Assembly: GCF_003334765.1 (NCBI RefSeq)
Contig: NZ_QOWT01000007.1
Strand: one strand, 5' to 3'
Length of the DNA stretch: 64,000 nt
From: Escherichia coli
GTDB taxonomy: Bacteria; Pseudomonadota; Gammaproteobacteria; Enterobacterales; Enterobacteriaceae
In this document: positions 13,834-34,420 of the stretch, one piece after another
Position numbering within the stretch: position 1 is the first letter of the stretch
Layout: every line of letters begins with the position of its first letter
Notes under the pieces: model-generated
Told to the model about the DNA's origin: nothing
Seen by the model: the letters and a program-made list of their open reading frames with translations, nothing else
Databases searched by the model: none
Made by a program: the position numbers and the translations under genes

Positions 13834-14670
13834 CTATTTCTTCTCTGTAATTTTTACACTGTTTTCCAACTGCTTGATGCTGACCTGCGGGGTCGGCAAC
13901 TCCTCAGGCATGGTTCCGCCAAGTTCCTGAATGGTTTGCATCACCTTGCTACCCACGTCAAAGTGTGTGGTATTAGCTTGCTGTTTTGAATTCACGCCAT
14001 CCCGCTTGAGTTTTTCTTCTGTTTGGGTAGCTCGAAAGAGATTAGCCGCCAGTTCTGTTGAACCCATATGATCCAGGATCTTCTGATTCTTTTTCAGCCC
14101 CTTCCGCTGATGAATAGCTTTCTGATCTAATCCACCATACAGCCCCTGGTAACCATGATTCTGAAATATGGCGAAATCAGTAGCTGTCGCTACCCCAGCT
14201 TGCTGTGCTGCCTCAACCAATTGTTTGTTATGTTCTTTCAACTCATTTCTCAGAAACAGACGCTTTTCGTCTTCACGAAGTTGCTTAAATGCTTCATCGT
14301 CAGCAAGCTCCTGCCGTCGGGTCTGGATAGCAAAATAAGTCTGCCCTGCCGCAATGACCGGTTTCGCAGGGTCGCCGTTTTGTACTACCAGGTAACAGGC
14401 ATAGCGGGAGAGTACGATGTCTTTTAATGCTCTTTTGGCATTTGAGCCAATTTTGACCATATCGAGGATCTCCTCGAAATGGTCATCAATTGTGTGACCA
14501 CTGTTCTCACAGGCTTCTTTGGCGCGCGTTAATACAGGTATAAAGTGACGATACTCTGAATAACCCAGTAGTTTCCCAAGTTGTCTTGCTGACCATTGTT
14601 CTGCTCCGTTTGCATTAATCAGTTTTATCTCTTCAAAAGGTTGATGATGTTCGTTCATTGCCCACTCCAT
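13834..14670 (-). CDS. dinD: DNA-damage-inducible protein D
   Basis: 278-aa ORF (MEWAMNEHHQPFEEIKLINANGAEQWSARQLGKLLGYSEY...); perfect LexA box just upstream. Confidence 0.8.
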   Translation of the reverse strand: MEWAMNEHHQPFEEIKLINANGAEQWSARQLGKLLGYSEYRHFIPVLTRAKEACENSGHTIDDHFEEILDMVKIGSNAKRALKDIVLSRYACYLVVQNGDPAKPVIAAGQTYFAIQTRRQELADDEAFKQLREDEKRLFLRNELKEHNKQLVEAAQQAGVATATDFAIFQNHGYQGLYGGLDQKAIHQRKGLKKNQKILDHMGSTELAANLFRATQTEEKLKRDGVNSKQQANTTHFDVGSKVMQTIQELGGTMPEELPTPQVSIKQLENSVKITEKK

Positions 14671-14703
14671 GTGATATCAATTGCAAAGAAAGTAAATCTG
14701 TAA

Positions 14704-14719
14704 CTGTATTTATATACAG
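14704..14719 (-). promoter_or_regulatory. LexA (SOS) box CTGTATTTATATACAG upstream of dinD
   Basis: 16-bp CTG-N10-CAG palindrome matching the LexA consensus, about 35-50 bp upstream of the dinD start. Confidence 0.8.
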
Positions 14720-14879
14720 TTGTGAGTATCTCACGTTCTCAGTGTGCTGGGCAAAAAAACATCGCAAAATCTGGAGCAGGCACGAAAAACAGAATTGAAA
14801 GTTGCGGGGAAGAAAAATGCCGCTCTGTTTGAGTGGGCGGCATTTGTGAAGGCTGAAAAGTAAGAATTGGCGTTACGAG

Positions 14880-15743
14880 TTATTCAATATTCTGAATCTG
14901 CTCGCGCATCTGCTCAATCAACACTTTCAGCTCAATCGCGGAGTTTGTCACTTCGGCATTGATAGACTTCGACGCAAGAGTGTTCGACTCGCGGTTGAAC
15001 TCCTGCATCATAAAGTCCAGACGACGACCAACGGCTTCTTTTTTCTTCAGAATGTTGTAGGTCTCTTTGACATGCGCTTCGAGGCGGTCCAGTTCTTCGG
15101 CAACGTCAATTCGTTGTGCCAGCAGAACCAACTCCTGCTCCAGACGGTTGTTTTCCAACTGAACCTGAGCATCTTCCAGCTTCGCGACCAAGCGTTCACG
15201 CTGCCATTGCAGGATTTCCGGCATATGGGAGCGGACTTTGACCACTTCGGCGGTGACGCCTTCCAGACGCTGCTCGATCAATGCTTTCAGTGCCTGACCT
15301 TCGGTTTCGCGCGCGACAATAAAGTCGTCCAGCGTACCATCCAGCGCCGCGAGAATTTCAGCGGCAATGGCGTCAAGATCCTGCTCCTGGGCTGCCATCA
15401 CGCCCGGCCAGCGTAGAATATCAACCGGGTTGATTTCCCCTTCGTCACTCTGCATTTTTACCCAGTTCGCGGCAGTTACCAGCTGTTTAGCCAGTTTTTC
15501 GTTGAGGATCAGCTCACCTTGCGCGCTAACATCTGGCTCATAGCGCAGGGTACATTCCACTTTACCGCGCGTCAGGCGAGAACGAATACGCTCGCGAACG
15601 ACAGGTTCAAGGCTACGGAACTGCTCCGGCAGACGAAAGTAAGTTTCCAGATAACGCTGGTTTACCGAGCGCATTTCCCAGGTTGCGCTCCCCCATTCAC
15701 CCTTGATTTCACGCCGGGCGTAGGCGGTCATACTGCGGATCAT
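14880..15743 (-). CDS. yicC: YicC-family stress-induced protein
   Basis: 287-aa ORF MIRSMTAYARREIKGEWGSATWEMRSVNQRYLET...; divergent from rph. Confidence 0.9.
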   Translation of the reverse strand: MIRSMTAYARREIKGEWGSATWEMRSVNQRYLETYFRLPEQFRSLEPVVRERIRSRLTRGKVECTLRYEPDVSAQGELILNEKLAKQLVTAANWVKMQSDEGEINPVDILRWPGVMAAQEQDLDAIAAEILAALDGTLDDFIVARETEGQALKALIEQRLEGVTAEVVKVRSHMPEILQWQRERLVAKLEDAQVQLENNRLEQELVLLAQRIDVAEELDRLEAHVKETYNILKKKEAVGRRLDFMMQEFNRESNTLASKSINAEVTNSAIELKVLIEQMREQIQNIE

Positions 15744-22114: not shown

Positions 22115-23879
<1,765 letters not shown>

Positions 23880-24226
23880 AATAAATAGCTGACTTATGGA
23901 TGTGCTGGGGATTCTATGTATTTAGCACCGGGTTTGCCATTACTTTTCCTTTTTTTGACTTAATTAGCCTCTGTTTGAGCTGATCTGCCGCTAGATCTTC
24001 ATTTTTTTTGTATTTTTATGCGATTCATTGAATTTCAGCCAGGATTGCAGCTTTACATCGACAATATCTGGATTCTCGAGTATGCAAAATTTTATCTCTA
24101 TGATTTTTATAATTAAAACATATTTTGTGTATAAAAATCATTCGGGTCGGATTGCTGCGAAAGAAATGATACACTAGCGCGTCAAAGTAAGTGCGTTATC
24201 AGTATTCGGGTAGCTGTTGAGCCTGG

Positions 24227-24238
24227 GGCGGTAGCGTG
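24227..24238 (+). promoter_or_regulatory. ops element GGCGGTAGCGTG (within a JUMPstart-type leader) upstream of waaQ
   Basis: Exact 12-nt ops sequence about 50 bp upstream of the waaQ start, followed by a T-run; RfaH-dependent antitermination site for the waaQ operon. Confidence 0.8.
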
Positions 24239-24285
24239 CTTTTTTCTGCTTAACTTAACCAGACAATCACACAAAAGAGTCGCTA

Positions 24286-25356
24286 GTGGAAAAGCCATTT
24301 CGAAAAATCCTGGTCATAAAGATGCGATATCACGGAGATATGTTATTAACTACTCCTGTAATCAGTACACTCAAGCAGAATTATCCCGACGCAAAAATCG
24401 ATATGCTGCTTTACCAGGATACAATTCCGATTTTATCTGAAAACCCAGAAATTAATGCACTCTATGGTATAAGCAATAAAGGTACGGGAACATTCGATAA
24501 AATTAAAAATGCACTTTCACTGATAAAAACTCTGCGTGCGAATAATTACGACCTGGTCATTAATCTTACGGATCAGTGGATGGTGGCCCTGCTGGTACGT
24601 TGTTTACCTGCTCGTATGAAAATATCGCAGCTTTATGGTCATCGGCAGCATGGCATTTGGAAAAAAAGCTTTACACACTTAGCGCCTATACACGGTACAC
24701 ATATTGTTGAGCGTAATTTGTCGGTCCTTGAGCCATTAGGTATTACCGATTTTTATACTGAAACAACCATGAGTTACGCCGAGGATTGCTGGAAGAAAAT
24801 GCGCCAGGAATTAGATGCACTGGGCGTGAAAGATCATTATGTCGTCATCCAGCCGACAGCCAGACAGATATTTAAGTGCTGGGACAACGATAAATTTTCT
24901 ATGGTTATCGATGCGTTGCAACATCGTGGTTATCAGGTTGTGCTGACTTGTGGCCCTTCGGCAGATGATCTCGCTTGCGTAGATGAAATTGCACGAGGCT
25001 GCCAAACAAAACCTATTACCGGCCTTGCCGGTAAAACACGTTTTCCTGAACTGGGCGCATTAATTGATCATGCAGTGCTCTTTATTGGTGTGGATTCTGC
25101 GCCGGGGCATATTGCAGCGGCTGTGAAGACGCCAGTTATTAGCCTGTTTGGGGCCACTGATCATGTATTCTGGCGTCCATGGACCGAGAATATTATTCAG
25201 TTCTGGGCGGGGAATTATCAAAAAATGCCTACCCGGCACGAACTTGACCGCAACAAAAAATATCTTTCTGTTATTCCAGCGGAAGATGTCATTGCCGCTA
25301 CGGAAAAGCTGTTGCCAGAAGATGCACCTTCAGCTGACAGGAATGCGCAATTATGA
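24286..25356 (+). CDS. waaQ: LPS heptosyltransferase III (GT9)
   Basis: 356 aa from the GTG at 24286 (ATG at 24322 gives 344 aa, MRYHGDMLLTTPVISTLKQNYP...); first gene of the long waa operon. Confidence 0.85.
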   Translation: MEKPFRKILVIKMRYHGDMLLTTPVISTLKQNYPDAKIDMLLYQDTIPILSENPEINALYGISNKGTGTFDKIKNALSLIKTLRANNYDLVINLTDQWMVALLVRCLPARMKISQLYGHRQHGIWKKSFTHLAPIHGTHIVERNLSVLEPLGITDFYTETTMSYAEDCWKKMRQELDALGVKDHYVVIQPTARQIFKCWDNDKFSMVIDALQHRGYQVVLTCGPSADDLACVDEIARGCQTKPITGLAGKTRFPELGALIDHAVLFIGVDSAPGHIAAAVKTPVISLFGATDHVFWRPWTENIIQFWAGNYQKMPTRHELDRNKKYLSVIPAEDVIAATEKLLPEDAPSADRNAQL

Positions 25357-26477
25357 TCGTGGCATTTTGCTTATATAAATATTTTCCATTTGGTGGGCTA
25401 CAGCGTGACTTTATGCGTATTGCCTCAACAGTTGCCGCACGGGGCCACCATGTTCGGGTATATACACAGTCGTGGGAAGGCGATTGCCCGGAAGCATTTG
25501 AGCTTATTCGCGTACCGGTTAAATCCCATACTAACCATGGACGTAATGCAGAATATTATGCCTGGGTTCAAAACCATCTGAAGGCACATCCCGCTGATCG
25601 CGTTGTTGGCTTTAATAAGATGCCTGGGCTGGATGTTTATTTTGCCGCCGATGTCTGTTATGCCGAGAAAGTGGCGCAAGAAAAGGGATTTTTCTATCGT
25701 TTAACATCGCGCTATCGCCATTATGCTGCATTCGAGCGAGCGACTTTCGAACATGGTAAATCGACGAAACTTATGATGTTGACCGATAAGCAAATCGCCG
25801 ATTTTCAGAAGCATTACCAAACTGAACCAGAACGTTTTCAAATTCTTCCCCCTGGTATCTATCCTGACAGAAAATACAACGCGCAAATCCCAAACAGTCG
25901 TGAAATTTATCGCCAGAAAAATGGCATCACTGAACAACAAAACTTATTGCTGCAGGTTGGTTCAGATTTTGGTCGTAAAGGTGTGGATCGCTCAATTGAA
26001 GCTTTGGCATCGTTACCAGAATCGTTACGCCATAATACGTTGTTGTTTGTTGTTGGCCAGGATAAACCGCGTAAATTTGAAGTGCTGGCAGAAAAACTCG
26101 GTGTGCGTAGTAAAGTGCATTTCTTTTCCGGGCGGAATGATGTGTCTGAATTAATGGCAGCCGCTGATTTATTAATGCATCCCGCTTATCAGGAGGCTGC
26201 AGGTATTGTTCTCCTTGAGGCAATTGCCGCGGGATTACCTGTGTTGACGACTGCGGTATGCGGATACGCACACTATATCACAGATGCTAATTGTGGAACG
26301 GTCATCGCTGAACCTTTCTCCCAGGAACAATTAAATGACGTTTTACGTAAAGCGTTAACTCAATCTCCATTGCGCATGGCCTGGGCGGAGAATGCTCGGT
26401 ATTACGCCGATACTCAGGATTTATACAGCCTGCCGGAGAAAGCGGCAGATATCATTACAGGTGGTTTAGATGGTTGA
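25353..26477 (+). CDS. waaG: LPS core glucosyltransferase I (GT4)
   Basis: 374-aa [42 protein letters not shown]... Confidence 0.9.
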
Positions 26478-27267
26478 ATTAGAAGAGCCACTTGCCACAC
26501 TCTGGCGTGGTAAAGATGCCTTTGCAGAAGTTAAAAAACTGAATGGCGAGGTCTTCCGTGAACTGGAGACGCGTCGCACATTACGCTTTGAACTGGCCGG
26601 CAAAAGTTATTTCCTCAAATGGCACAAAGGGACGACCCTAAAGGAGATTATAAAAAATCTGCTCTCATTGCGGATGCCCGTTTTAGGTGCAGACAGAGAG
26701 TGGCACGCTATTCATCGACTGCATGATGTCGGTGTTGATACGATGCACGGAATAGGATTTGGTGAAAAAGGGTTAAATCCATTAACTCGCACATCATTTA
26801 TTATTACCGAAGATCTCACTCCCACAATTAGCCTTGAAGATTATTGTGCAGATTGGGCGGTCAACCCGCCTGATGTACATATTAAGCGTATGCTGATCGC
26901 GCGTGTGGCAACCATGGTGCGCAAAATGCATGCAGCAGGGATTAATCACCGTGATTGTTATATCTGCCACTTTTTACTCCATTTGCCATTTACTGGCCGG
27001 GAAGATGAATTAAAAATTTCGGTTATCGATCTGCACCGGGCACAGATACGTGCAAAAGTACCACGTCGTTGGCGGGATAAAGATTTGATTGGTTTATATT
27101 TCTCATCAATGAATATTGGTCTGACGCAGAGAGATATCTGGCGATTTATGAAGGTTTATTTTGGGATGCCTTTACGCGATATTTATAGACTTGAGATTGA
27201 TTTACTTAAAAAGGCAAGGATTAAAGCAGGAAAAATAGAAGCAAGAACAATAAGAAAAAACTTGTAA
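26470..27267 (+). CDS. waaP: LPS core heptose I kinase
   Basis: 265-aa [43 protein letters not shown]... with kinase-like HRDCYICHF motif. Confidence 0.9.
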
Positions 27268-27299
27268 ATAGTATTTTATTACAAAAAGGGATTCTAAAA

Positions 27300-28280
27300 T
27301 TGTTGAAATATAGAAACTTCGTTGCTAAGAAGAAAAATTTATACCAAAACGAAGTGTCGTATGTTAAAAATTTACATATTGCACTATGCTTTGACCGTGA
27401 ATTCATAATGCCAGCGGGTGTTGCATTATATTCAATTATATCCAACAATAGACATATTAACCTTCATTTTCACCTTCTTATATCAGGCATAGAAGAAAAG
27501 GAGTGTTCAGCTTTTTACGAACTAGAAGGTCCTAATACATCAATATCTGTATATTATATAACTGATAAATTTGACATTAATCCGGATACATTAGTTCTTG
27601 GTATTCCTTTATCAACATGTTTACGTTTTTTAATCCCAGAAGTTATTGATGATAAAATAAATAAGATACTTTATCTTGACTGTGATGTCATATGTAATGG
27701 TCCTTTAGATGAACTGGTTGATTATAATTTAAATGCTGATATTGCATGTGTAATTCCAGATTCGCCAGAAATGCAAGAACGTGTAAAAAAATTAGACTAT
27801 GGCATTGAGTTTATTAATTATTTTAATGCCGGGGTTATGTTTATTAATACCAGCGAATGGAAAAAAAATAATATAACACAAAAAGCGTTAGAAATGATCA
27901 ACAGTGGAAAAGTATATAGGTATGCAGATCAGGATGTGCTCAATATTTTACTTAATGGACGAGTGCATTACCTTGATAAGAAGTACAATAATAAGACAAC
28001 ATTGTCAGTACGATGTGATGAAGAACAAAAAAACTTGCCCAACACAATTATAATGCATTATGTTACCCAGAATAAACCATGGTACAAAATATTTAGAGCA
28101 CAAAATTTTGATCATTATTTTTCAAATTCTCCTTGGAAGAACCATAAAAGAAATCTAGCTCCATCATCAAGTGAGATTAGGTTAAAGTCTAAAGTTTTTT
28201 GGCTAGAAGGAAAATATTGTAAAGCCATTTCTTATTATTATAAGTATTTACTTGTTAAATTATTTGGCTTAAAGATTTAG
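27300..28280 (+). CDS. LPS core GT8-like glycosyltransferase at the position occupied by waaS in K-12/R2 clusters
   Basis: 326-aa ORF in very AT-rich DNA; GT8 hallmarks YLDCDVIC, YFNAGVMFINTSEW and DQDVLNILL, clearly paralogous to the two downstream GT8 ORFs. Start codon uncertain (the tool start is a TTG). Confidence 0.6.
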   Translation: MLKYRNFVAKKKNLYQNEVSYVKNLHIALCFDREFIMPAGVALYSIISNNRHINLHFHLLISGIEEKECSAFYELEGPNTSISVYYITDKFDINPDTLVLGIPLSTCLRFLIPEVIDDKINKILYLDCDVICNGPLDELVDYNLNADIACVIPDSPEMQERVKKLDYGIEFINYFNAGVMFINTSEWKKNNITQKALEMINSGKVYRYADQDVLNILLNGRVHYLDKKYNNKTTLSVRCDEEQKNLPNTIIMHYVTQNKPWYKIFRAQNFDHYFSNSPWKNHKRNLAPSSSEIRLKSKVFWLEGKYCKAISYYYKYLLVKLFGLKI

Positions 28281-28293
28281 CTGGAATGAAATT

Positions 28294-29373
28294 ATGAAAA
28301 TAGCCTTTATTGGCGAAGCTGTTTCTGGATTTGGCGGCATGGAAACAGTCATTCGTGATGTTATTACTACCTTCAGGCAACAACATATCCAAAGTGAAAT
28401 TTTTTTCTTTTGTCGTAATGACAAAATGGATAAGGGATGGCTGGAAGGTATTAAGTACTCGTGTTCATTTTCCAATATTCGCTTAGGTTTTTTGCGTCGC
28501 GCGAAACATATTCATGCTTTAAGCAAATGGCTTCATGATTATCAGCCAGATGTTGTTATTTGTATTGACGTGATCTCGTGTTTGTATGCGGCCAAAGCTC
28601 GTAAAAAATCGGGGATTGATGTACCTGTATTTTCATGGCCGCATTTTTCTTTAGATCATAAAAAACATGCCGAATATATCACCTGTGCCGACTATCATTT
28701 AGCCATCAGCTCTGGTATTAAACAGCAAATGATTAGCCGGGGTGTACCAGAATCGACAATAAACGTTATTTTTAATCCCGTTGAGGCGAAAAATTCAGTC
28801 ATTCCTGCACCCGGGGAAGGCGAAACGGCAACATTCATTTATGTTGGGCGCATGAAATTTGAAGGCCAAAAGCGCGTAAAAGATCTGCTTGATGGCTTAT
28901 CACAAGTGCAAGGTGACTGGAAACTTCATGTATTGGGAGATGGCTCCGATTTCGAAAAATGCCAGGCTTATGGTAGAGGATTAAATATTGATGATCGAAT
29001 TGTCTGGTATGGTTGGCAACAACATCCCTGGAAATTAGTTCAGCAAGATATTAAAAAAGTGAGTGCATTATTACTCACGTCATCTTTTGAAGGTTTCCCA
29101 ATGACTCTACTTGAAGCCTTGTCGTGGGGGATCCCTTGTATCAGTGCAGATTGTGTCTCCGGGCCTGTTGATATCATTCAGCCTGATGTTAATGGTCATT
29201 TATATCAACCGGGGGATATGACCGGTTTTGTTGCTCTTCTCAATAAATACATAGCCGGTGAAATTCACATCGCACATGAAAAAATTCCGGCGTCGATCGA
29301 TAAATTTTATCAACCGAAATATTACGACAGATTGCAAAAGATAATTATTTCTGTTATTTCCCGGAGGAAATAA
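28294..29373 (+). CDS. waaB: LPS core alpha-1,6-galactosyltransferase (GT4)
   Basis: 359-aa ORF MKIAFIGEAVSGFGGMETVIRDVITTFRQQ...; GT4 motif FEGFPMTLLEALSWGIPCI. Confidence 0.8.
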   Translation: MKIAFIGEAVSGFGGMETVIRDVITTFRQQHIQSEIFFFCRNDKMDKGWLEGIKYSCSFSNIRLGFLRRAKHIHALSKWLHDYQPDVVICIDVISCLYAAKARKKSGIDVPVFSWPHFSLDHKKHAEYITCADYHLAISSGIKQQMISRGVPESTINVIFNPVEAKNSVIPAPGEGETATFIYVGRMKFEGQKRVKDLLDGLSQVQGDWKLHVLGDGSDFEKCQAYGRGLNIDDRIVWYGWQQHPWKLVQQDIKKVSALLLTSSFEGFPMTLLEALSWGIPCISADCVSGPVDIIQPDVNGHLYQPGDMTGFVALLNKYIAGEIHIAHEKIPASIDKFYQPKYYDRLQKIIISVISRRK

Positions 29374-30392
29374 TGCAGCAGGTTTTTTTCCAGGAGACTG
29401 AGTTTCTCAATTCGGTTATTGATTATAATCATAAAATAGAAGCAGAAAATCTTTGTCTGGATATTGCTTATGGGACTGACAAAAATTTTCTTTTTGGATG
29501 CGGAATATCGATTGCTTCAATATTAAAATATAATGAAGGAAATCAATTATGCTTTCATATTTTTACTGATTATTTCGGTGATGACGATCGCAAATATTTT
29601 GATGCCCTGGCCAGGCAATATAAAACAAGAATTAAGATATATTTAATTAATGGTGATCGACTCCGTTCATTACCCTGCACCAAGAACTGGACTCATGCTA
29701 TTTATTTTCGTTTTGTTATCGCCGATTACTTTTTTAATAAAGCACCCAAAGTTCTTTATCTGGATGCAGATATTATTTGTCAGGGAACTATAGAACCACT
29801 TATCAATTACACGTTTTCTGAACATACAGTCGCAATGGTTGTTACAGAAGGACAAAAAGACTGGTGGGCAAAACGTGCTCATTCGTTAGGTGTTGCTGGG
29901 ATTGCTAATGGTTACTTTAACTCCGGTTTTTTACTGATTAATACTAATCAATGGACGAATGAGCGGGTTTCTGCACGGGCCATTGCAATGTTAAGTGATC
30001 CAGAGATAGTCAAAAAAATAACACATCCTGATCAGGATGTATTAAATATGTTATTGGCAGACAAACTTGTTTATGCTGATATTAAATATAACACTCAGTT
30101 TAGTTTAAATTATCAACTAAAAGAAAGTTTTAAAAACCCAGTAACTAACGATACAGTTTTTATTCATTATATTGGTCCAACTAAACCCTGGCATGACTGG
30201 GCCTGGGATTATCCAATATCACAAGCTTTTATGGCGGCAAAAAATGCTTCACCATGGAAGGATACTGCGTTATTGAAACCGGTTAATAGTAATCAATTAA
30301 GATACAGTGCTAAACATATGTTGAAAAAAAAGCAATATATCAAAGGATTTGGCAACTATCTTTTGTATTTTATAAAAAAGCTAAAGCATTAA
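29373..30392 (+). CDS. waaO: LPS core alpha-1,3-glucosyltransferase (GT8)
   Basis: 339-aa ORF MQQVFFQETEFLNSVIDYNHKIEAENLCLDIAYGTDKNF...; motifs YLDADIIC and DQDVLN; ATGA overlap with the waaB stop. Confidence 0.8.
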   Translation: MQQVFFQETEFLNSVIDYNHKIEAENLCLDIAYGTDKNFLFGCGISIASILKYNEGNQLCFHIFTDYFGDDDRKYFDALARQYKTRIKIYLINGDRLRSLPCTKNWTHAIYFRFVIADYFFNKAPKVLYLDADIICQGTIEPLINYTFSEHTVAMVVTEGQKDWWAKRAHSLGVAGIANGYFNSGFLLINTNQWTNERVSARAIAMLSDPEIVKKITHPDQDVLNMLLADKLVYADIKYNTQFSLNYQLKESFKNPVTNDTVFIHYIGPTKPWHDWAWDYPISQAFMAAKNASPWKDTALLKPVNSNQLRYSAKHMLKKKQYIKGFGNYLLYFIKKLKH

Positions 30393-30555
30393 TACTGATA
30401 ATCTATACTCTAAATAATTCGAGTTGCAGGACAAAAAGCCAGTGGCGTTTTGAGGAACGCTTGCGTTGGCCCTGAAATGCCGAGTAACTCGCCGATGCAG
30501 CACATGCAACTTGAAGTATAACGAGTATATAAAGTAATGATATAAGGATAGCCTT

Positions 30556-31572
30556 GTGAACTCATTTCCTGCCATAGAGATAGATAAAGTTAAAGCCTGG
30601 GATTTTAGGCTTATTGATGAAAATACTGCTGAAAGTTTAAATGTTGCCTATGGTGTCGATTCCAATTATCTTGATGGTGTAGGTGTTTCCATTACTTCAA
30701 TTGTCATTAATAATCGACATGTTAATCTTGATTTTTATATTATTGCTGATGTTTATAACGACGATTTCTTTCAAAAAGTTGAGAAACTTGCTGAGCAATA
30801 CCAATTAAGAATCACACTTTATAGAATAAATACTGATAATCTTCAGTGCCTGCCTTGTACACAAGTCTGGTCAAGAGCAATGTACTTCCGTTTATTTGCT
30901 TTTCAATTATTGGGAGTAACACTTAATCGTTTGCTTTATCTTGATGCCGATGTAGTTTGTAAGGGAAATATTAGTCAACTATTGCATTTAGAGTTTAATG
31001 GAGCGGTGGCTGCAGTAGTCAGGGATGTAGACCCAATGCAGGAAAAGGCGGTAGTCAGATTATCTGATCCTGAACTTCGGGGGCAGTATTTTAATTCTGG
31101 TGTCGTTTACTTAGACCTAAAAAAATGGACAGAAGCAAAACTAACCGAAAAAGCACTGTCTATTCTTATGAGTAAAGATAGTATTTATAAGTATCCTGAC
31201 CAGGACGTTATGAATGTCCTACTAAAAGGGATGACAATATTCCTGCCACGTGAGTTCAATACTATATATACAATAAAAAGTGAGTTAAAAGATAAAACGC
31301 ATCAAAAATATAAAGAGTTGATAAAAGAGGATACTCTTCTTATTCATTATACTGGGGCCACCAAGCCGTGGCACAAATGGGCAATTTATCCATCGGTAAA
31401 ATACTATAAAATAGCTTTAGAAAGATCCCCCTGGAAAGATGACTCACCACGAGATGCAAAATCAATTATTGAATTCAAAAAAAGATATAAACATCTGTTA
31501 GTGCAACATCATTATATCTCAGGACTCATTGCAGGAGTGTGTTATCTTTGCCGAAAATATTACCGTAAATAA
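30556..31572 (+). CDS. waaR: LPS core alpha-1,2-glucosyltransferase (GT8; WaaR/WaaJ-type)
   Basis: 338-aa ORF (GTG start) ...NSFPAIEIDKVKAWDFRLIDENTAESLNVAYGVDSNYLDGVG...; motifs YLDADVVC and DQDVMN. Confidence 0.75.
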   Translation: MNSFPAIEIDKVKAWDFRLIDENTAESLNVAYGVDSNYLDGVGVSITSIVINNRHVNLDFYIIADVYNDDFFQKVEKLAEQYQLRITLYRINTDNLQCLPCTQVWSRAMYFRLFAFQLLGVTLNRLLYLDADVVCKGNISQLLHLEFNGAVAAVVRDVDPMQEKAVVRLSDPELRGQYFNSGVVYLDLKKWTEAKLTEKALSILMSKDSIYKYPDQDVMNVLLKGMTIFLPREFNTIYTIKSELKDKTHQKYKELIKEDTLLIHYTGATKPWHKWAIYPSVKYYKIALERSPWKDDSPRDAKSIIEFKKRYKHLLVQHHYISGLIAGVCYLCRKYYRK

Positions 31573-31589
31573 CATTTAACTGGTTTAAC

Positions 31590-32288
31590 ATGATTCAGAA
31601 GAATAAAATCAAAGATTTAGTTGTTTTTACCGATGAAAATAACTCAAAGTATCTCAATGTATTAAATGACTTTCTTTCTTATGATATTAATATCATCAAA
31701 GTTTTTCGTTCTATAGATGATACAAAAGTCATGCTTATTGATACCGATTACGGTAAATTGATACTTAAAGTTTTTTCGCCTAAAGTAAAACGCAACGAAC
31801 GTTTCTTTAAATCTCTTTTAAAGGGAGATTATTATGAACGCCTTTTTGAGCATACTCAAAAAGTGCGTAACGAGGGGCTACATTCTCTCAATGATTTTTA
31901 TTTGTTGGCAGAACGGAAAACATTACGTTTTGTCCATACTTATATCATGCTTATCGAATATATCGATGGCGTAGAGTTGTGTGATATCCCCGATATTGAT
32001 GAAACTTTAAAAAATAAAATTCAACAATCAATTCGTTCATTACACGAACACGGTATGGTATCTGGTGATCCTCACCGCGGTAATTTTATTATTGAAAATG
32101 GTGAAGTACGCATTATTGATCTTTCAGGAAAACGGGCATCTGCACAACGTAAAGCGAAAGATCGTATTGATTTAGAGCGACATTATGGTATTAAGAATGA
32201 GGTTAAAGATCTCGGTTATTATCTTTTAGTTTATCGTAAAAAAATACGTAATCTTATGCGGCGTTTGAAAGGGAAGCCAGCACGATAA
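31590..32288 (+). CDS. waaY: LPS core heptose II kinase
   Basis: 232-aa ORF MIQKNKIKDLVVFTDENNSKYLNVLNDFLSYDINIIKVFRS... Confidence 0.85.
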   Translation: MIQKNKIKDLVVFTDENNSKYLNVLNDFLSYDINIIKVFRSIDDTKVMLIDTDYGKLILKVFSPKVKRNERFFKSLLKGDYYERLFEHTQKVRNEGLHSLNDFYLLAERKTLRFVHTYIMLIEYIDGVELCDIPDIDETLKNKIQQSIRSLHEHGMVSGDPHRGNFIIENGEVRIIDLSGKRASAQRKAKDRIDLERHYGIKNEVKDLGYYLLVYRKKIRNLMRRLKGKPAR

Positions 32289-32359
32289 AGTAAAAGTCTT
32301 ACATTTAAACGTCTTCGTCAGGACATTTCTATGCGGAGTTCTTATTTCACAGGTTTATC

Positions 32360-33169
32360 ATGAAGAATATTAGATACATTGACAAAAAAGATGTTGAAAA
32401 CCTGATAGAAAGTAAAACGTCTGATGATGTTATTATTTTTCTTTCCGGCCCCACATCGCAAAAAACACCATTGTCAGTGCTGCAGACAAGGGATGTTATT
32501 GCTGTCAATGGTTCTGCACAATATCTATTAAGTCATAATATTATTCCCTATATTTATGTACTTACCGATGTTCGCTTTTTACATCAACGGCGTGATGATT
32601 TTTATAAATTTAGCCAGAGAAGTCGTTATACCATCGTAAATGTTGACGTTTATGAACATGCTTCTGAAGAAGATAAGCGGTACATCCTTCAAAACTGCCT
32701 GGTACTACGTTCATTTTACCGCAGAGAAAAAGGTGGATTGATCAAGAAGATCAAGTTTAATATTTTGAGCCGAATTCATAAAGAGCTCCTGATCTCTGTA
32801 CCTTTTTCTAAAAAAGGTCGTCTGGTTGGCTTTTGCAAGGATATTAACCTCGGTTATTGTTCATGCCATACCGTTGCTTTTGCTGCAATCCAAATAGCCT
32901 ATTCGCTGAAGTATGCTCGTATTATCTGTTCAGGCCTTGATTTAACGGGTAGCTGTTCGCGTTTCTATGATGAAGATAAGAATCCTATGCCCTCAGAGTT
33001 GATTCGGGATTTATTCAAAATTTTACCATTTTTCCGTTTTATGCGTGAAAATATAGAAGATATCAATATTTATAATTTATCCGACGATACTGCAATTCAA
33101 TATGATATTATTCCCTATATGAAAATATCCGAAATTGAAGAGCCGTGTGTTTATGAAAAAATAAGCTAA
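32360..33169 (+). CDS. waaZ: LPS core biosynthesis protein WaaZ (Kdo III-associated)
   Basis: 269-aa ORF MKNIRYIDKKDVENLIESKTSDDVIIFLSGPTS...; position between waaY and the last transferase gene. Confidence 0.75.
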   Translation: MKNIRYIDKKDVENLIESKTSDDVIIFLSGPTSQKTPLSVLQTRDVIAVNGSAQYLLSHNIIPYIYVLTDVRFLHQRRDDFYKFSQRSRYTIVNVDVYEHASEEDKRYILQNCLVLRSFYRREKGGLIKKIKFNILSRIHKELLISVPFSKKGRLVGFCKDINLGYCSCHTVAFAAIQIAYSLKYARIICSGLDLTGSCSRFYDEDKNPMPSELIRDLFKILPFFRFMRENIEDINIYNLSDDTAIQYDIIPYMKISEIEEPCVYEKIS

Positions 33170-33221
33170 TATTTTATATGTGTTTATTACGTGTTATAAA
33201 TTATATTGGAGTTGGCTAATA

Positions 33222-34364
33222 ATGATTAAAAAAATAATATTTACCGTCACACCAATATTTTCTATACCGCCAAAAGGAGCTGCAGCGGTTGAAACATGGA
33301 TTTATCAGGTCGCAAAAAGACTTTCGATTCCAGTAACTATCGCCTGTATTCGAAACGAAGGTTACCCAACCTACACAAAAGTAAATGATCACTGTGATAT
33401 TCACTACATTGGTTTTAGTCGAGTCTATAAACGACTTTTCCAAAAGTGGACTCGACTTGATCCTGTGCCATATTCTCAGCGTATTTTAAATACCCAACCT
33501 AAAAACACTGATCCGAAAGACTCTGTTATTGTTATCCACAATAGCATGAAGCTGTATAAACAGATTCGTAGCAGAAGCCCTCACGCGCAGCTAGTTATGC
33601 ATCTTCATAATGCTTTCGAGCCAGGTGAGTTAGACAAAAATGCAAAGATAATTGTTCCTAGCCAGTTTCTTTTCGATTTCTATTCGGAAAAAATGCCTGA
33701 TGCAAATATTGCTATTGTGCCTAATGGTTTTTGTTCTGAATCGTATGAACAAAATAATACTGAAGATTTGAGGCAGAAACTGAACATTGATGCAAATGAT
33801 ACCGTGTTATTATTTGCAGGAAGGATATCACCAGATAAAGGTTGCCTGATGCTTATGGAGGCTTTTAATCAGCTGAATAAGATACAAGATAACCTCAAAC
33901 TGGTGATTGTCGGAGATCCTTTTGCCAGTAAAAAAGGCGAAAAAGCTGAATATCAGAAAAAAGTTCTGGATGCAGCGAAAGCTATTGGAGCGCAATGCAT
34001 TATGGCGGGTGGACAGCCTCCAGAGCAGATGCATAACTATTACCGTTTAGCAGATTTAGTTGTTGTTCCTTCTCAGGTAGAAGAAGCTTTTTGTATGGTA
34101 GCTGTTGAAGCGATGGCGGCAGGTAAACCAGTGCTTGCCAGTCAAAAAGGTGGAATTAGTGAGTTTGTTCTGGAAGGAATTACAGGCTATCACCTTGCAG
34201 AGCCTATGACATCTGAAAGTATTCTCGCGGATATTAAGCGCGTTTTGGCGGATGCTGACAGAGCTCAAATTGCTAAAAATGCCCGAAATTTTGTTTTCTC
34301 AAAATATAGCTGGGAACATGTTACTCAGCGTTTTGAAGCACAAATACAAGACTGGTTTGGTTAA
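33222..34364 (+). CDS. waaK: GT4 glycosyltransferase, WaaK-like (alpha-1,2-GlcNAc transferase of R2/Salmonella-type cores)
   Basis: About 380 aa from ATG 33222 (MIKKIIFTV..., GGAG about 10 nt upstream); GT4 EX7E region EEAFCMVAVEAMAAGKPVLASQKGGISEFV. This is not the GT9 WaaU found in K-12. Confidence 0.7.
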   Translation: MIKKIIFTVTPIFSIPPKGAAAVETWIYQVAKRLSIPVTIACIRNEGYPTYTKVNDHCDIHYIGFSRVYKRLFQKWTRLDPVPYSQRILNTQPKNTDPKDSVIVIHNSMKLYKQIRSRSPHAQLVMHLHNAFEPGELDKNAKIIVPSQFLFDFYSEKMPDANIAIVPNGFCSESYEQNNTEDLRQKLNIDANDTVLLFAGRISPDKGCLMLMEAFNQLNKIQDNLKLVIVGDPFASKKGEKAEYQKKVLDAAKAIGAQCIMAGGQPPEQMHNYYRLADLVVVPSQVEEAFCMVAVEAMAAGKPVLASQKGGISEFVLEGITGYHLAEPMTSESILADIKRVLADADRAQIAKNARNFVFSKYSWEHVTQRFEAQIQDWFG

Positions 34365-34383
34365 AAATTATTGGATTTGAAGA

Positions 34384-34420
34384 GCCTGCCTGAACTTAAT
34401 GTCAGGCAGGCTTTTTTTTA
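34384..34420. terminator. bidirectional hairpin terminator between convergent waaK and waaL
   Basis: GCCTGCCTGA-acttaat-GTCAGGCAGGC followed by a T-run (A-run on the other strand). Confidence 0.7.

Follow-up and report, generated by a model that had tools for sequence, protein, structure and literature searches.

An ops/JUMPstart element, the probable loading site for RfaH, in the waaQ leader of an Escherichia coli strain with a non-K-12 core type

How is the 10 kb, AT-rich operon for the lipopolysaccharide (LPS) core transcribed in full in an Escherichia coli strain whose core type is not that of K-12? For K-12, control of the waaQ operon by RfaH has been established experimentally (PMC5449661, PMC6358824, PMC8745692). 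Every operon controlled by RfaH has a 12 nt ops element in its leader, and ops is a consensus pause site (PMC5995543). We analysed a 64,000 nt stretch of DNA (contig NZ_QOWT01000007.1 of assembly GCF_003334765.1; hereafter the window) that is E. coli chromosome. A preliminary description had placed an exact ops 12-mer in the waaQ leader and predicted RfaH-dependent antitermination across a 10 kb operon. Our analysis leads to the view that an ops/JUMPstart element of the E. coli waaQ operon, loading RfaH, is very probably the explanation of this locus.

The length predicted for the operon was confirmed. Ten open reading frames on the same strand span positions 24286 to 34364 (10,079 bp) and, together with RefSeq annotation, define a ten-gene waa operon on the + strand. 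The order of genes is waaQ, waaG, waaP, a gene of the GT8 family, waaB, waaO, waaJ, waaY, waaZ and a gene for a GlcNAc transferase. In the RefSeq annotation of an identical record, waaQ (rfaQ; 24286–25356, + strand) encodes LPS core heptosyltransferase III and has a GTG start, and waaA (22602–23879) is divergent, on the opposite strand. At the other end of the operon, a 53 bp gap separates the last waa gene from the convergent waaL. Within this gap is a hairpin, nearly perfect and flanked 3′ by a T-run. The hairpin is an intrinsic terminator closing the operon (TTTATTTATT; 34379–34416, no strand assigned), with a 15 bp stem, including 7 G–C pairs, followed by TTTTT. Judging from the palindromic stem and its position, the terminator looks usable from both strands and common to both operons.

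Base composition changes along the window. The G+C content is 0.50–0.54 in the flanks, 0.40–0.46 over waaQGP and 0.31–0.37 over the region from 27 to 34 kb. Such AT-rich composition of the waa operon is typical of RfaH targets. On the strand corresponding to the waa mRNA the G+C skew is positive (G > C), unlike the classic C-rich rut signature. Because the skew is not of the C-rich rut type, the sensitivity of the operon to Rho rests on experiments with K-12 and not on the sequence of the window.

Of the ten genes in the operon, eight have K-12 orthologues, with 88–98% amino acid identity. The fourth gene of the K-12 operon is rfaS, whereas the window has the GT8-family transferase (27300–28280), which is ~30% identical to WaaJ and WaaO. 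Similarly, K-12 has waaU as the last gene, whereas the window has the GlcNAc transferase (33180–34364). The waaL gene of the window also differs from K-12 waaL. Between waaO and waaJ there are 163 nt of non-coding DNA in the window (30393–30555), compared with 39 nt in K-12; about 120 nt of this gap (30408–30527) have no K-12 counterpart. The window is a case of a non-K-12 core type, which we take to be probably R2, behind an essentially K-12 control region.

The ops 12-mer was found exactly as described. The sequence GGCGGTAGCGTG occupies positions 24227–24238 of the + strand and is the single match in the 64 kb window, even with one mismatch permitted. From base composition, 0.007 exact copies would be expected in 64 kb, counting both strands. 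The sequence satisfies the 12 nt ops consensus GGCGGTAGnnTG. Both the recruitment core, C3 G4 G5 T6 A7 G8, and the pause dinucleotide, T11 G12, are intact, as befits a site for RfaH recruitment on the non-template strand that is also a consensus pause. Previous work has separated the two functions. Bases 3–8 are dispensable for pausing, which requires T11 and G12; substitution of G4, G5, A7 or G8 abolishes RfaH recruitment and changes at C3 or T6 cause a ~3-fold reduction (PMC5995543). The non-template ops strand adopts a hairpin from which T6 flips into RfaH, and the RfaH:ops crystal structure shows the G2:C9 and C3:G8 pairs of this hairpin (PMC5995543). When the ops 9-mer of the window was folded as DNA, the same small hairpin was predicted, although weakly (−0.9 kcal/mol). 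The two pairs were also predicted by RNAalifold.

The ops sequence forms the 3′ end of a 39 nt JUMPstart element (24200–24238, + strand). The match to Rfam family RF01707 is full length (model positions 1–38 of 38), and its 53.1 bits (E 1e-10) exceed the gathering score of 35. No other Rfam family exceeded its threshold in the whole 64 kb window. A match to the S15 leader at 24019–24066 was dismissed as noise (E 0.75; 17 bits against 39.5). Within JUMPstart, the segments CGGGU (24207–24211) and GCCUG (24221–24225) are the two sides of a stem-loop (24207–24225, + strand) with a 9 nt loop. This 5 bp stem was recovered by RNAalifold in 51 leaders. There are compensatory changes at two of its pairs: C–G becomes U–A in 3 sequences, and A–U becomes U–A or G–C in 13. 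In a set of 38 leaders, 100% of cells pair. The element of the window is like the RF01707 motif in both its full-length match and its covarying 5 bp stem. The consensus GGCGGTAGnnTG is common to the ops elements of the rfb (O-antigen), kps/cps (capsule), hly (haemolysin) and F tra operons, where, as at waaQ, ops is in the leader of a long, horizontally acquired operon (PMC5995543, PMC5449661).

The ops element is on the non-template (sense) strand and lies within the transcribed leader, between a transcription start at position 24182 and a GTG codon at position 24286. We transferred the start from the 5′ end of MG1655 rirA (b4760; 3808238 on the − strand) by means of an ungapped alignment, in which position x of the window equals position 3832420 − x of MG1655. 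Reviews give rirA and the waaQ mRNA a common 5′ end (PMC8745692, PMC5736990). Because the two RNAs have one 5′ end, position 24182 (+ strand) is also the start of the waaQ mRNA, and the 5′ UTR of waaQ is 104 nt long. The range of 24180–24285, first proposed for the leader, is almost exactly this 5′ UTR. Relative to the transcription start, ops extends from +46 to +57 and the pause position, U11, is nucleotide 24237.

The sequence TGaTACACT (TGATACACT; 24167–24175, + strand) ends 7 nt upstream of position 24182 and is predicted to be the extended −10 element of the waaQ/rirA promoter. Among 38 aligned Enterobacteriaceae waaQ leaders, TACAnT never varies and the TG before it rarely does. For this promoter we found no convincing −35 element, and consequently a simple consensus promoter scan of the leader did not pick it up. 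A consensus scan for terminators found none in the waaQ leader. Just 3′ of ops, the sequence has a run of six T residues (24240–24245, + strand), which is present in many, not all, of the 38 leaders. Any role for the T-run is putative. Our survey of the T-run, and of the segment preceding JUMPstart, was confined to waaQ leaders.

The start codon of waaQ is annotated in two ways. The RefSeq record of MG1655 keeps an internal ATG (window position 24322; 344 aa) and PGAP uses the upstream GTG (24286; 356 aa). In the window, the GTG is 47 nt past ops and is preceded, at a spacing of 6 nt, by the sequence AAGAG (24275–24279, + strand), a putative and weak Shine–Dalgarno sequence. Comparison between species shows the purine-rich codons in front of the GTG to be conserved. 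A GTG was found 39–50 nt after ops in all 53 leaders that we examined, and the peptide V-E/D-K-P-F-R-K-I-L-V-I-K-M-R-x-H-G-D-M, read from the GTG, is conserved in leaders of the Enterobacteriaceae type. The internal ATG, used as the waaQ start by older K-12 annotation, is absent from Pectobacterium and Serratia. Hence, conservation across species supports the upstream GTG as the likely start of waaQ.

The control region is highly conserved within E. coli. The 521 nt surrounding ops are 100% identical to several complete E. coli genomes. Across 5426 complete E. coli genomes, this 521 nt region is only 60–80% identical in 4461, whereas 5422 have the 61 nt JUMPstart/ops block with an identity of 90% or more, usually in a single copy. 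We also aligned six E. coli representatives that differ in their version of the intergenic region, making no reference to ops. The distal half of the intergenic region was scrambled, the segment from about position 24133 through ops and the T-run was nearly invariant, and ops itself was invariant. All 5426 of these genomes have an rfaH gene. The gene is not within the 64 kb window, and we infer from the species that the source genome contains it.

Conservation extends beyond the species. We scanned ~100,000 species-level genomes for the exact 12-mer located 77–107 nt upstream of CAYGGNGAYATG, which corresponds to the H-G-D-M motif of WaaQ. The scan returned 52 loci, where by our estimate ~4 matches would be expected by chance. 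They include Escherichia, Salmonella, Citrobacter, Kluyvera, Cedecea, Pectobacterium, Serratia and Leminorella. In these 52 other Enterobacterales genomes, the ops 12-mer is 39–50 nt before the waaQ GTG.

Two observations concern insertions in other strains. In strain MLI104K2 (NZ_CP116925.1, 75089–76393), the waaA–waaQ intergenic region contains a 574 bp insertion, upstream of the waaQ promoter and equivalent to window positions 24039–24048. The insertion has long poly-C/G runs, annotated by RefSeq as a ‘hypothetical protein’ (poly-proline), and a flanking repeat, CCAGGATTGC. Its start we recognise as what is presumably an IS1 end. It looks like an IS1 insertion combined with an artefact of long-read assembly and was set aside as irrelevant to the window. 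Strain 167 has a waaQ leader identical to that of the window and a transposase of the ISKox3 family between dinD and yicC; the window (14670–14880) is without this transposase.

We compared the leader with that of K-12 MG1655 base by base. Between positions 24160 and 24330 there are two differences, at 24179 and 24208. Only the latter falls between 24182 and 24330, that is, in the 5′ UTR and first 15 codons of waaQ. At 24208, a G–U pair of the JUMPstart stem takes the place of an A–U pair. The window shares with K-12 its −10 element, transcription start, ops, T-run, GTG start and divergent waaA. The equivalent of RirA, the RfaH-interacting RNA, spans positions 24182–24254 (+ strand; 73 nt; MG1655 rirA b4760, 3808166–3808238 on the − strand) and is identical at 72 of 73 bases, position 24208 being the sole difference. 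The function of RirA has been described (PMC5736990, PMC6358824). A discrete, 73 nt, RfaH-binding RirA is accordingly predicted in this strain by likeness to K-12. We observed directly what the sequence of the element is, where it lies, that it is conserved and that it is nearly identical to K-12.

In vivo data for K-12 place abundant RNA 3′ ends inside ops. Using Term-seq, Adams et al. (2021) mapped 3′ ends to MG1655 positions 3808184 and 3808183 (− strand), with 62,669 and 116,952 reads, respectively (PMC7815308, supplement 3). The ends had a Rho score of 1.04 (‘No’) and an intrinsic terminator score of 6.28, for which the cut-off was 3 (PMC7815308). Mapped through the alignment, these ends are positions 24236 and 24237 of the window (+ strand), equivalent to ops G10 and U11. 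U11 is also where RNA polymerase pauses in vitro (PMC5995543). With such data, paused or nascent RNA at U11 and released RNA are not separable. The dominant K-12 ends correspond to RNAs of 55–56 nt, and the annotated 73 nt RirA ends 17 nt further downstream. Term-seq lists no 3′ end at position 24254, the annotated end of RirA.

Taken together, the intact 12-mer on the sense strand, the transcribed leader, the AT-rich operon and the near-K-12 leader support the prediction that transcription of the operon involves RfaH-dependent antitermination. The dependence on RfaH would then be a property of this strain as it is of K-12. It is from the K-12 literature that pausing, binding of RfaH and the consequences for distal genes are known; they should apply here by virtue of the shared sequence. 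RfaH remains bound as far as an intrinsic terminator, reducing pausing and excluding NusG (PMC5449661). Bound RfaH also blocks Rho-dependent polarity and aids ribosome loading (PMC5449661). ‘Antitermination’ at this operon mostly means protection from polarity due to Rho and NusG, together with help for translation; reading through intrinsic terminators is not its main sense.

The sequence of events would be as follows. Transcription would begin at position 24182, from the extended −10 promoter, and RNA polymerase would pause on reaching ops U11 (24237). In the open bubble, the non-template sequence GGCGGTAG is expected to adopt the small hairpin in which G2:C9 and C3:G8 are paired and T6 is flipped out. 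RfaH would bind this hairpin and be released from autoinhibition. It would then be kept on the polymerase for 10 kb, up to the terminator at 34379–34416. While bound, RfaH would suppress pausing and keep NusG off, so that Rho could not cause polarity in the AT-rich genes. The refolded C-terminal domain of RfaH would recruit ribosomes, which may matter because waaQ has a GTG start and a weak Shine–Dalgarno sequence. Finally, RirA, as the first 73 nt of the waaQ leader, would bear both ops and JUMPstart, and an excess of RirA could bind RfaH and dampen its action.

We also considered other sequences resembling ops. We found 7 copies of the 8-mer core, GGCGGTAG, in the window, where 1.2–1.8 would be expected. 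Codon-preserving shuffles leave a modest excess: their mean is 3.8 copies, and 66 of 2000 shuffles reach 7 (p ~0.03). On the + strand, one of the extra copies is in a terminator stem (4970), two are antisense to genes (13330 and 56824) and one is in the waaJ coding sequence, on the sense strand (31047); the last is missing from K-12 waaJ. On the − strand, one copy is in the coding sequence of hldD (38002), on the sense strand of this LPS gene, and one is inside a coding open reading frame (52573), which we take to be lldP. None of the six extra copies has T11 G12, the JUMPstart half or a leader position. Without T11 G12, and located in a stem, antisense or coding DNA, all six were rejected as functional sites.

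Might the 12-mer at waaQ itself be a chance or vestigial sequence, with no regulatory role in this strain? In favour are the six further copies of the 8-mer core, at places where function is very unlikely. Set against this are the 0.007 full 12-mers expected in the window and the complete JUMPstart surrounding the one that is found. Furthermore, the 12-mer is invariant across E. coli despite diverged flanks, is kept at a fixed distance from the waaQ start in 52 other Enterobacterales, and sits in a leader nearly identical to the experimentally characterised leader of K-12. Such an origin is scarcely credible and has already been effectively refuted by conservation. A second reading is that ops serves only as a consensus pause, independent of RfaH, that could, for instance, synchronise transcription with translation of waaQ, with other factors handling polarity. 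Indeed, ops fits the general consensus pause and halts polymerase without RfaH (PMC5995543), and 3′ ends at U11 are abundant in wild-type cells. However, bases 3–8 are needed for RfaH recruitment and not for pausing, and these bases are invariant in the six E. coli representatives. In addition, K-12 genetics link waa expression to RfaH. We regard a pause without RfaH as a very improbable account of the element, and retain RfaH loading.

A further possibility accepts RfaH loading and adds to it. The leader RNA has a candidate long, imperfect hairpin (24190–24241, + strand), in which nucleotides 24190–24204 pair with the ops RNA (24228–24241) and the JUMPstart stem is the tip. The 5′ arm, AAGTGCGTTATC, is upstream of JUMPstart and complementary to the ops RNA, and Enterobacteriaceae waaQ leaders conserve it. 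The 3′ arm takes in the first two U residues as well as the ops RNA. For an RNA of RirA length this hairpin is the minimum-energy fold, at −22.4 kcal/mol compared with −17.6 kcal/mol for shuffled sequences (z = −1.8). In the 38 leaders, 90% of cells pair, the changes are mostly one-sided and one position is usually unpaired; support from covariation is suggestive only. The longer helix is not part of the RF01707 model. A competing 5′-proximal hairpin (24177–24182 with 24192–24198) was rejected; only 70% of its cells pair, no better than in shuffles.

If the long hairpin forms, the leader might work mainly as an RNA device, an intrinsic attenuator in which pairing of the ops RNA with nucleotides 24190–24204, followed by U6, releases short RNAs similar to RirA; on balance we doubt this. 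It is equally doubtful that there is a feedback loop, with capture of RfaH at ops determining whether polymerase reads through or an RfaH-titrating RNA is released. Polymerases that failed to capture RfaH would, on this unlikely scheme, terminate and free either RirA or the 55–56 nt ops RNA to titrate RfaH, so that the attenuator had built-in feedback. Several observations are in favour. The hairpin is the minimum-energy fold (z = −1.8) and the U-run (24240–24245) comes directly after the stem. Changes in the 5′ arm, from U–G to C–G and from G–U to A–U, keep pairing, and 3 pairs are changed on both sides. The leader 3′ end exceeds the intrinsic terminator cut-off of Adams et al. (PMC7815308), and RirA exists and has a common start with waaQ. 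Against these, the Term-seq ends at 24236 and 24237 are inside the proposed 3′ arm and not past the U-run, and our terminator scan gave nothing in the leader. The long helix was not recovered by RNAalifold; one central pair, 24198/24234, fails to form in 25 of the 38 sequences, and a different pair fails in 7 of the 38. Leaders without the U-run still have the 5′ arm. Moreover, both controls are tilted towards the hairpin, since the search pattern held the ops arm constant and the structure came from the window itself. The one part of this locus that could add to knowledge is how the ops pause, the U-run and the RirA 3′ end relate to one another.

The ops/JUMPstart element of waaQ is real and conserved, and it is a long-known, textbook RfaH loading signal. 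Its roles are established for E. coli K-12 and relatives; the present analysis only confirms that a strain with a non-K-12 core retains the standard control region. The presence of the element accounts for full-length transcription of a 10 kb, AT-rich LPS core operon. On the completeness of the LPS core depend outer membrane integrity, tolerance of detergents and antibiotics, phage receptors and virulence.
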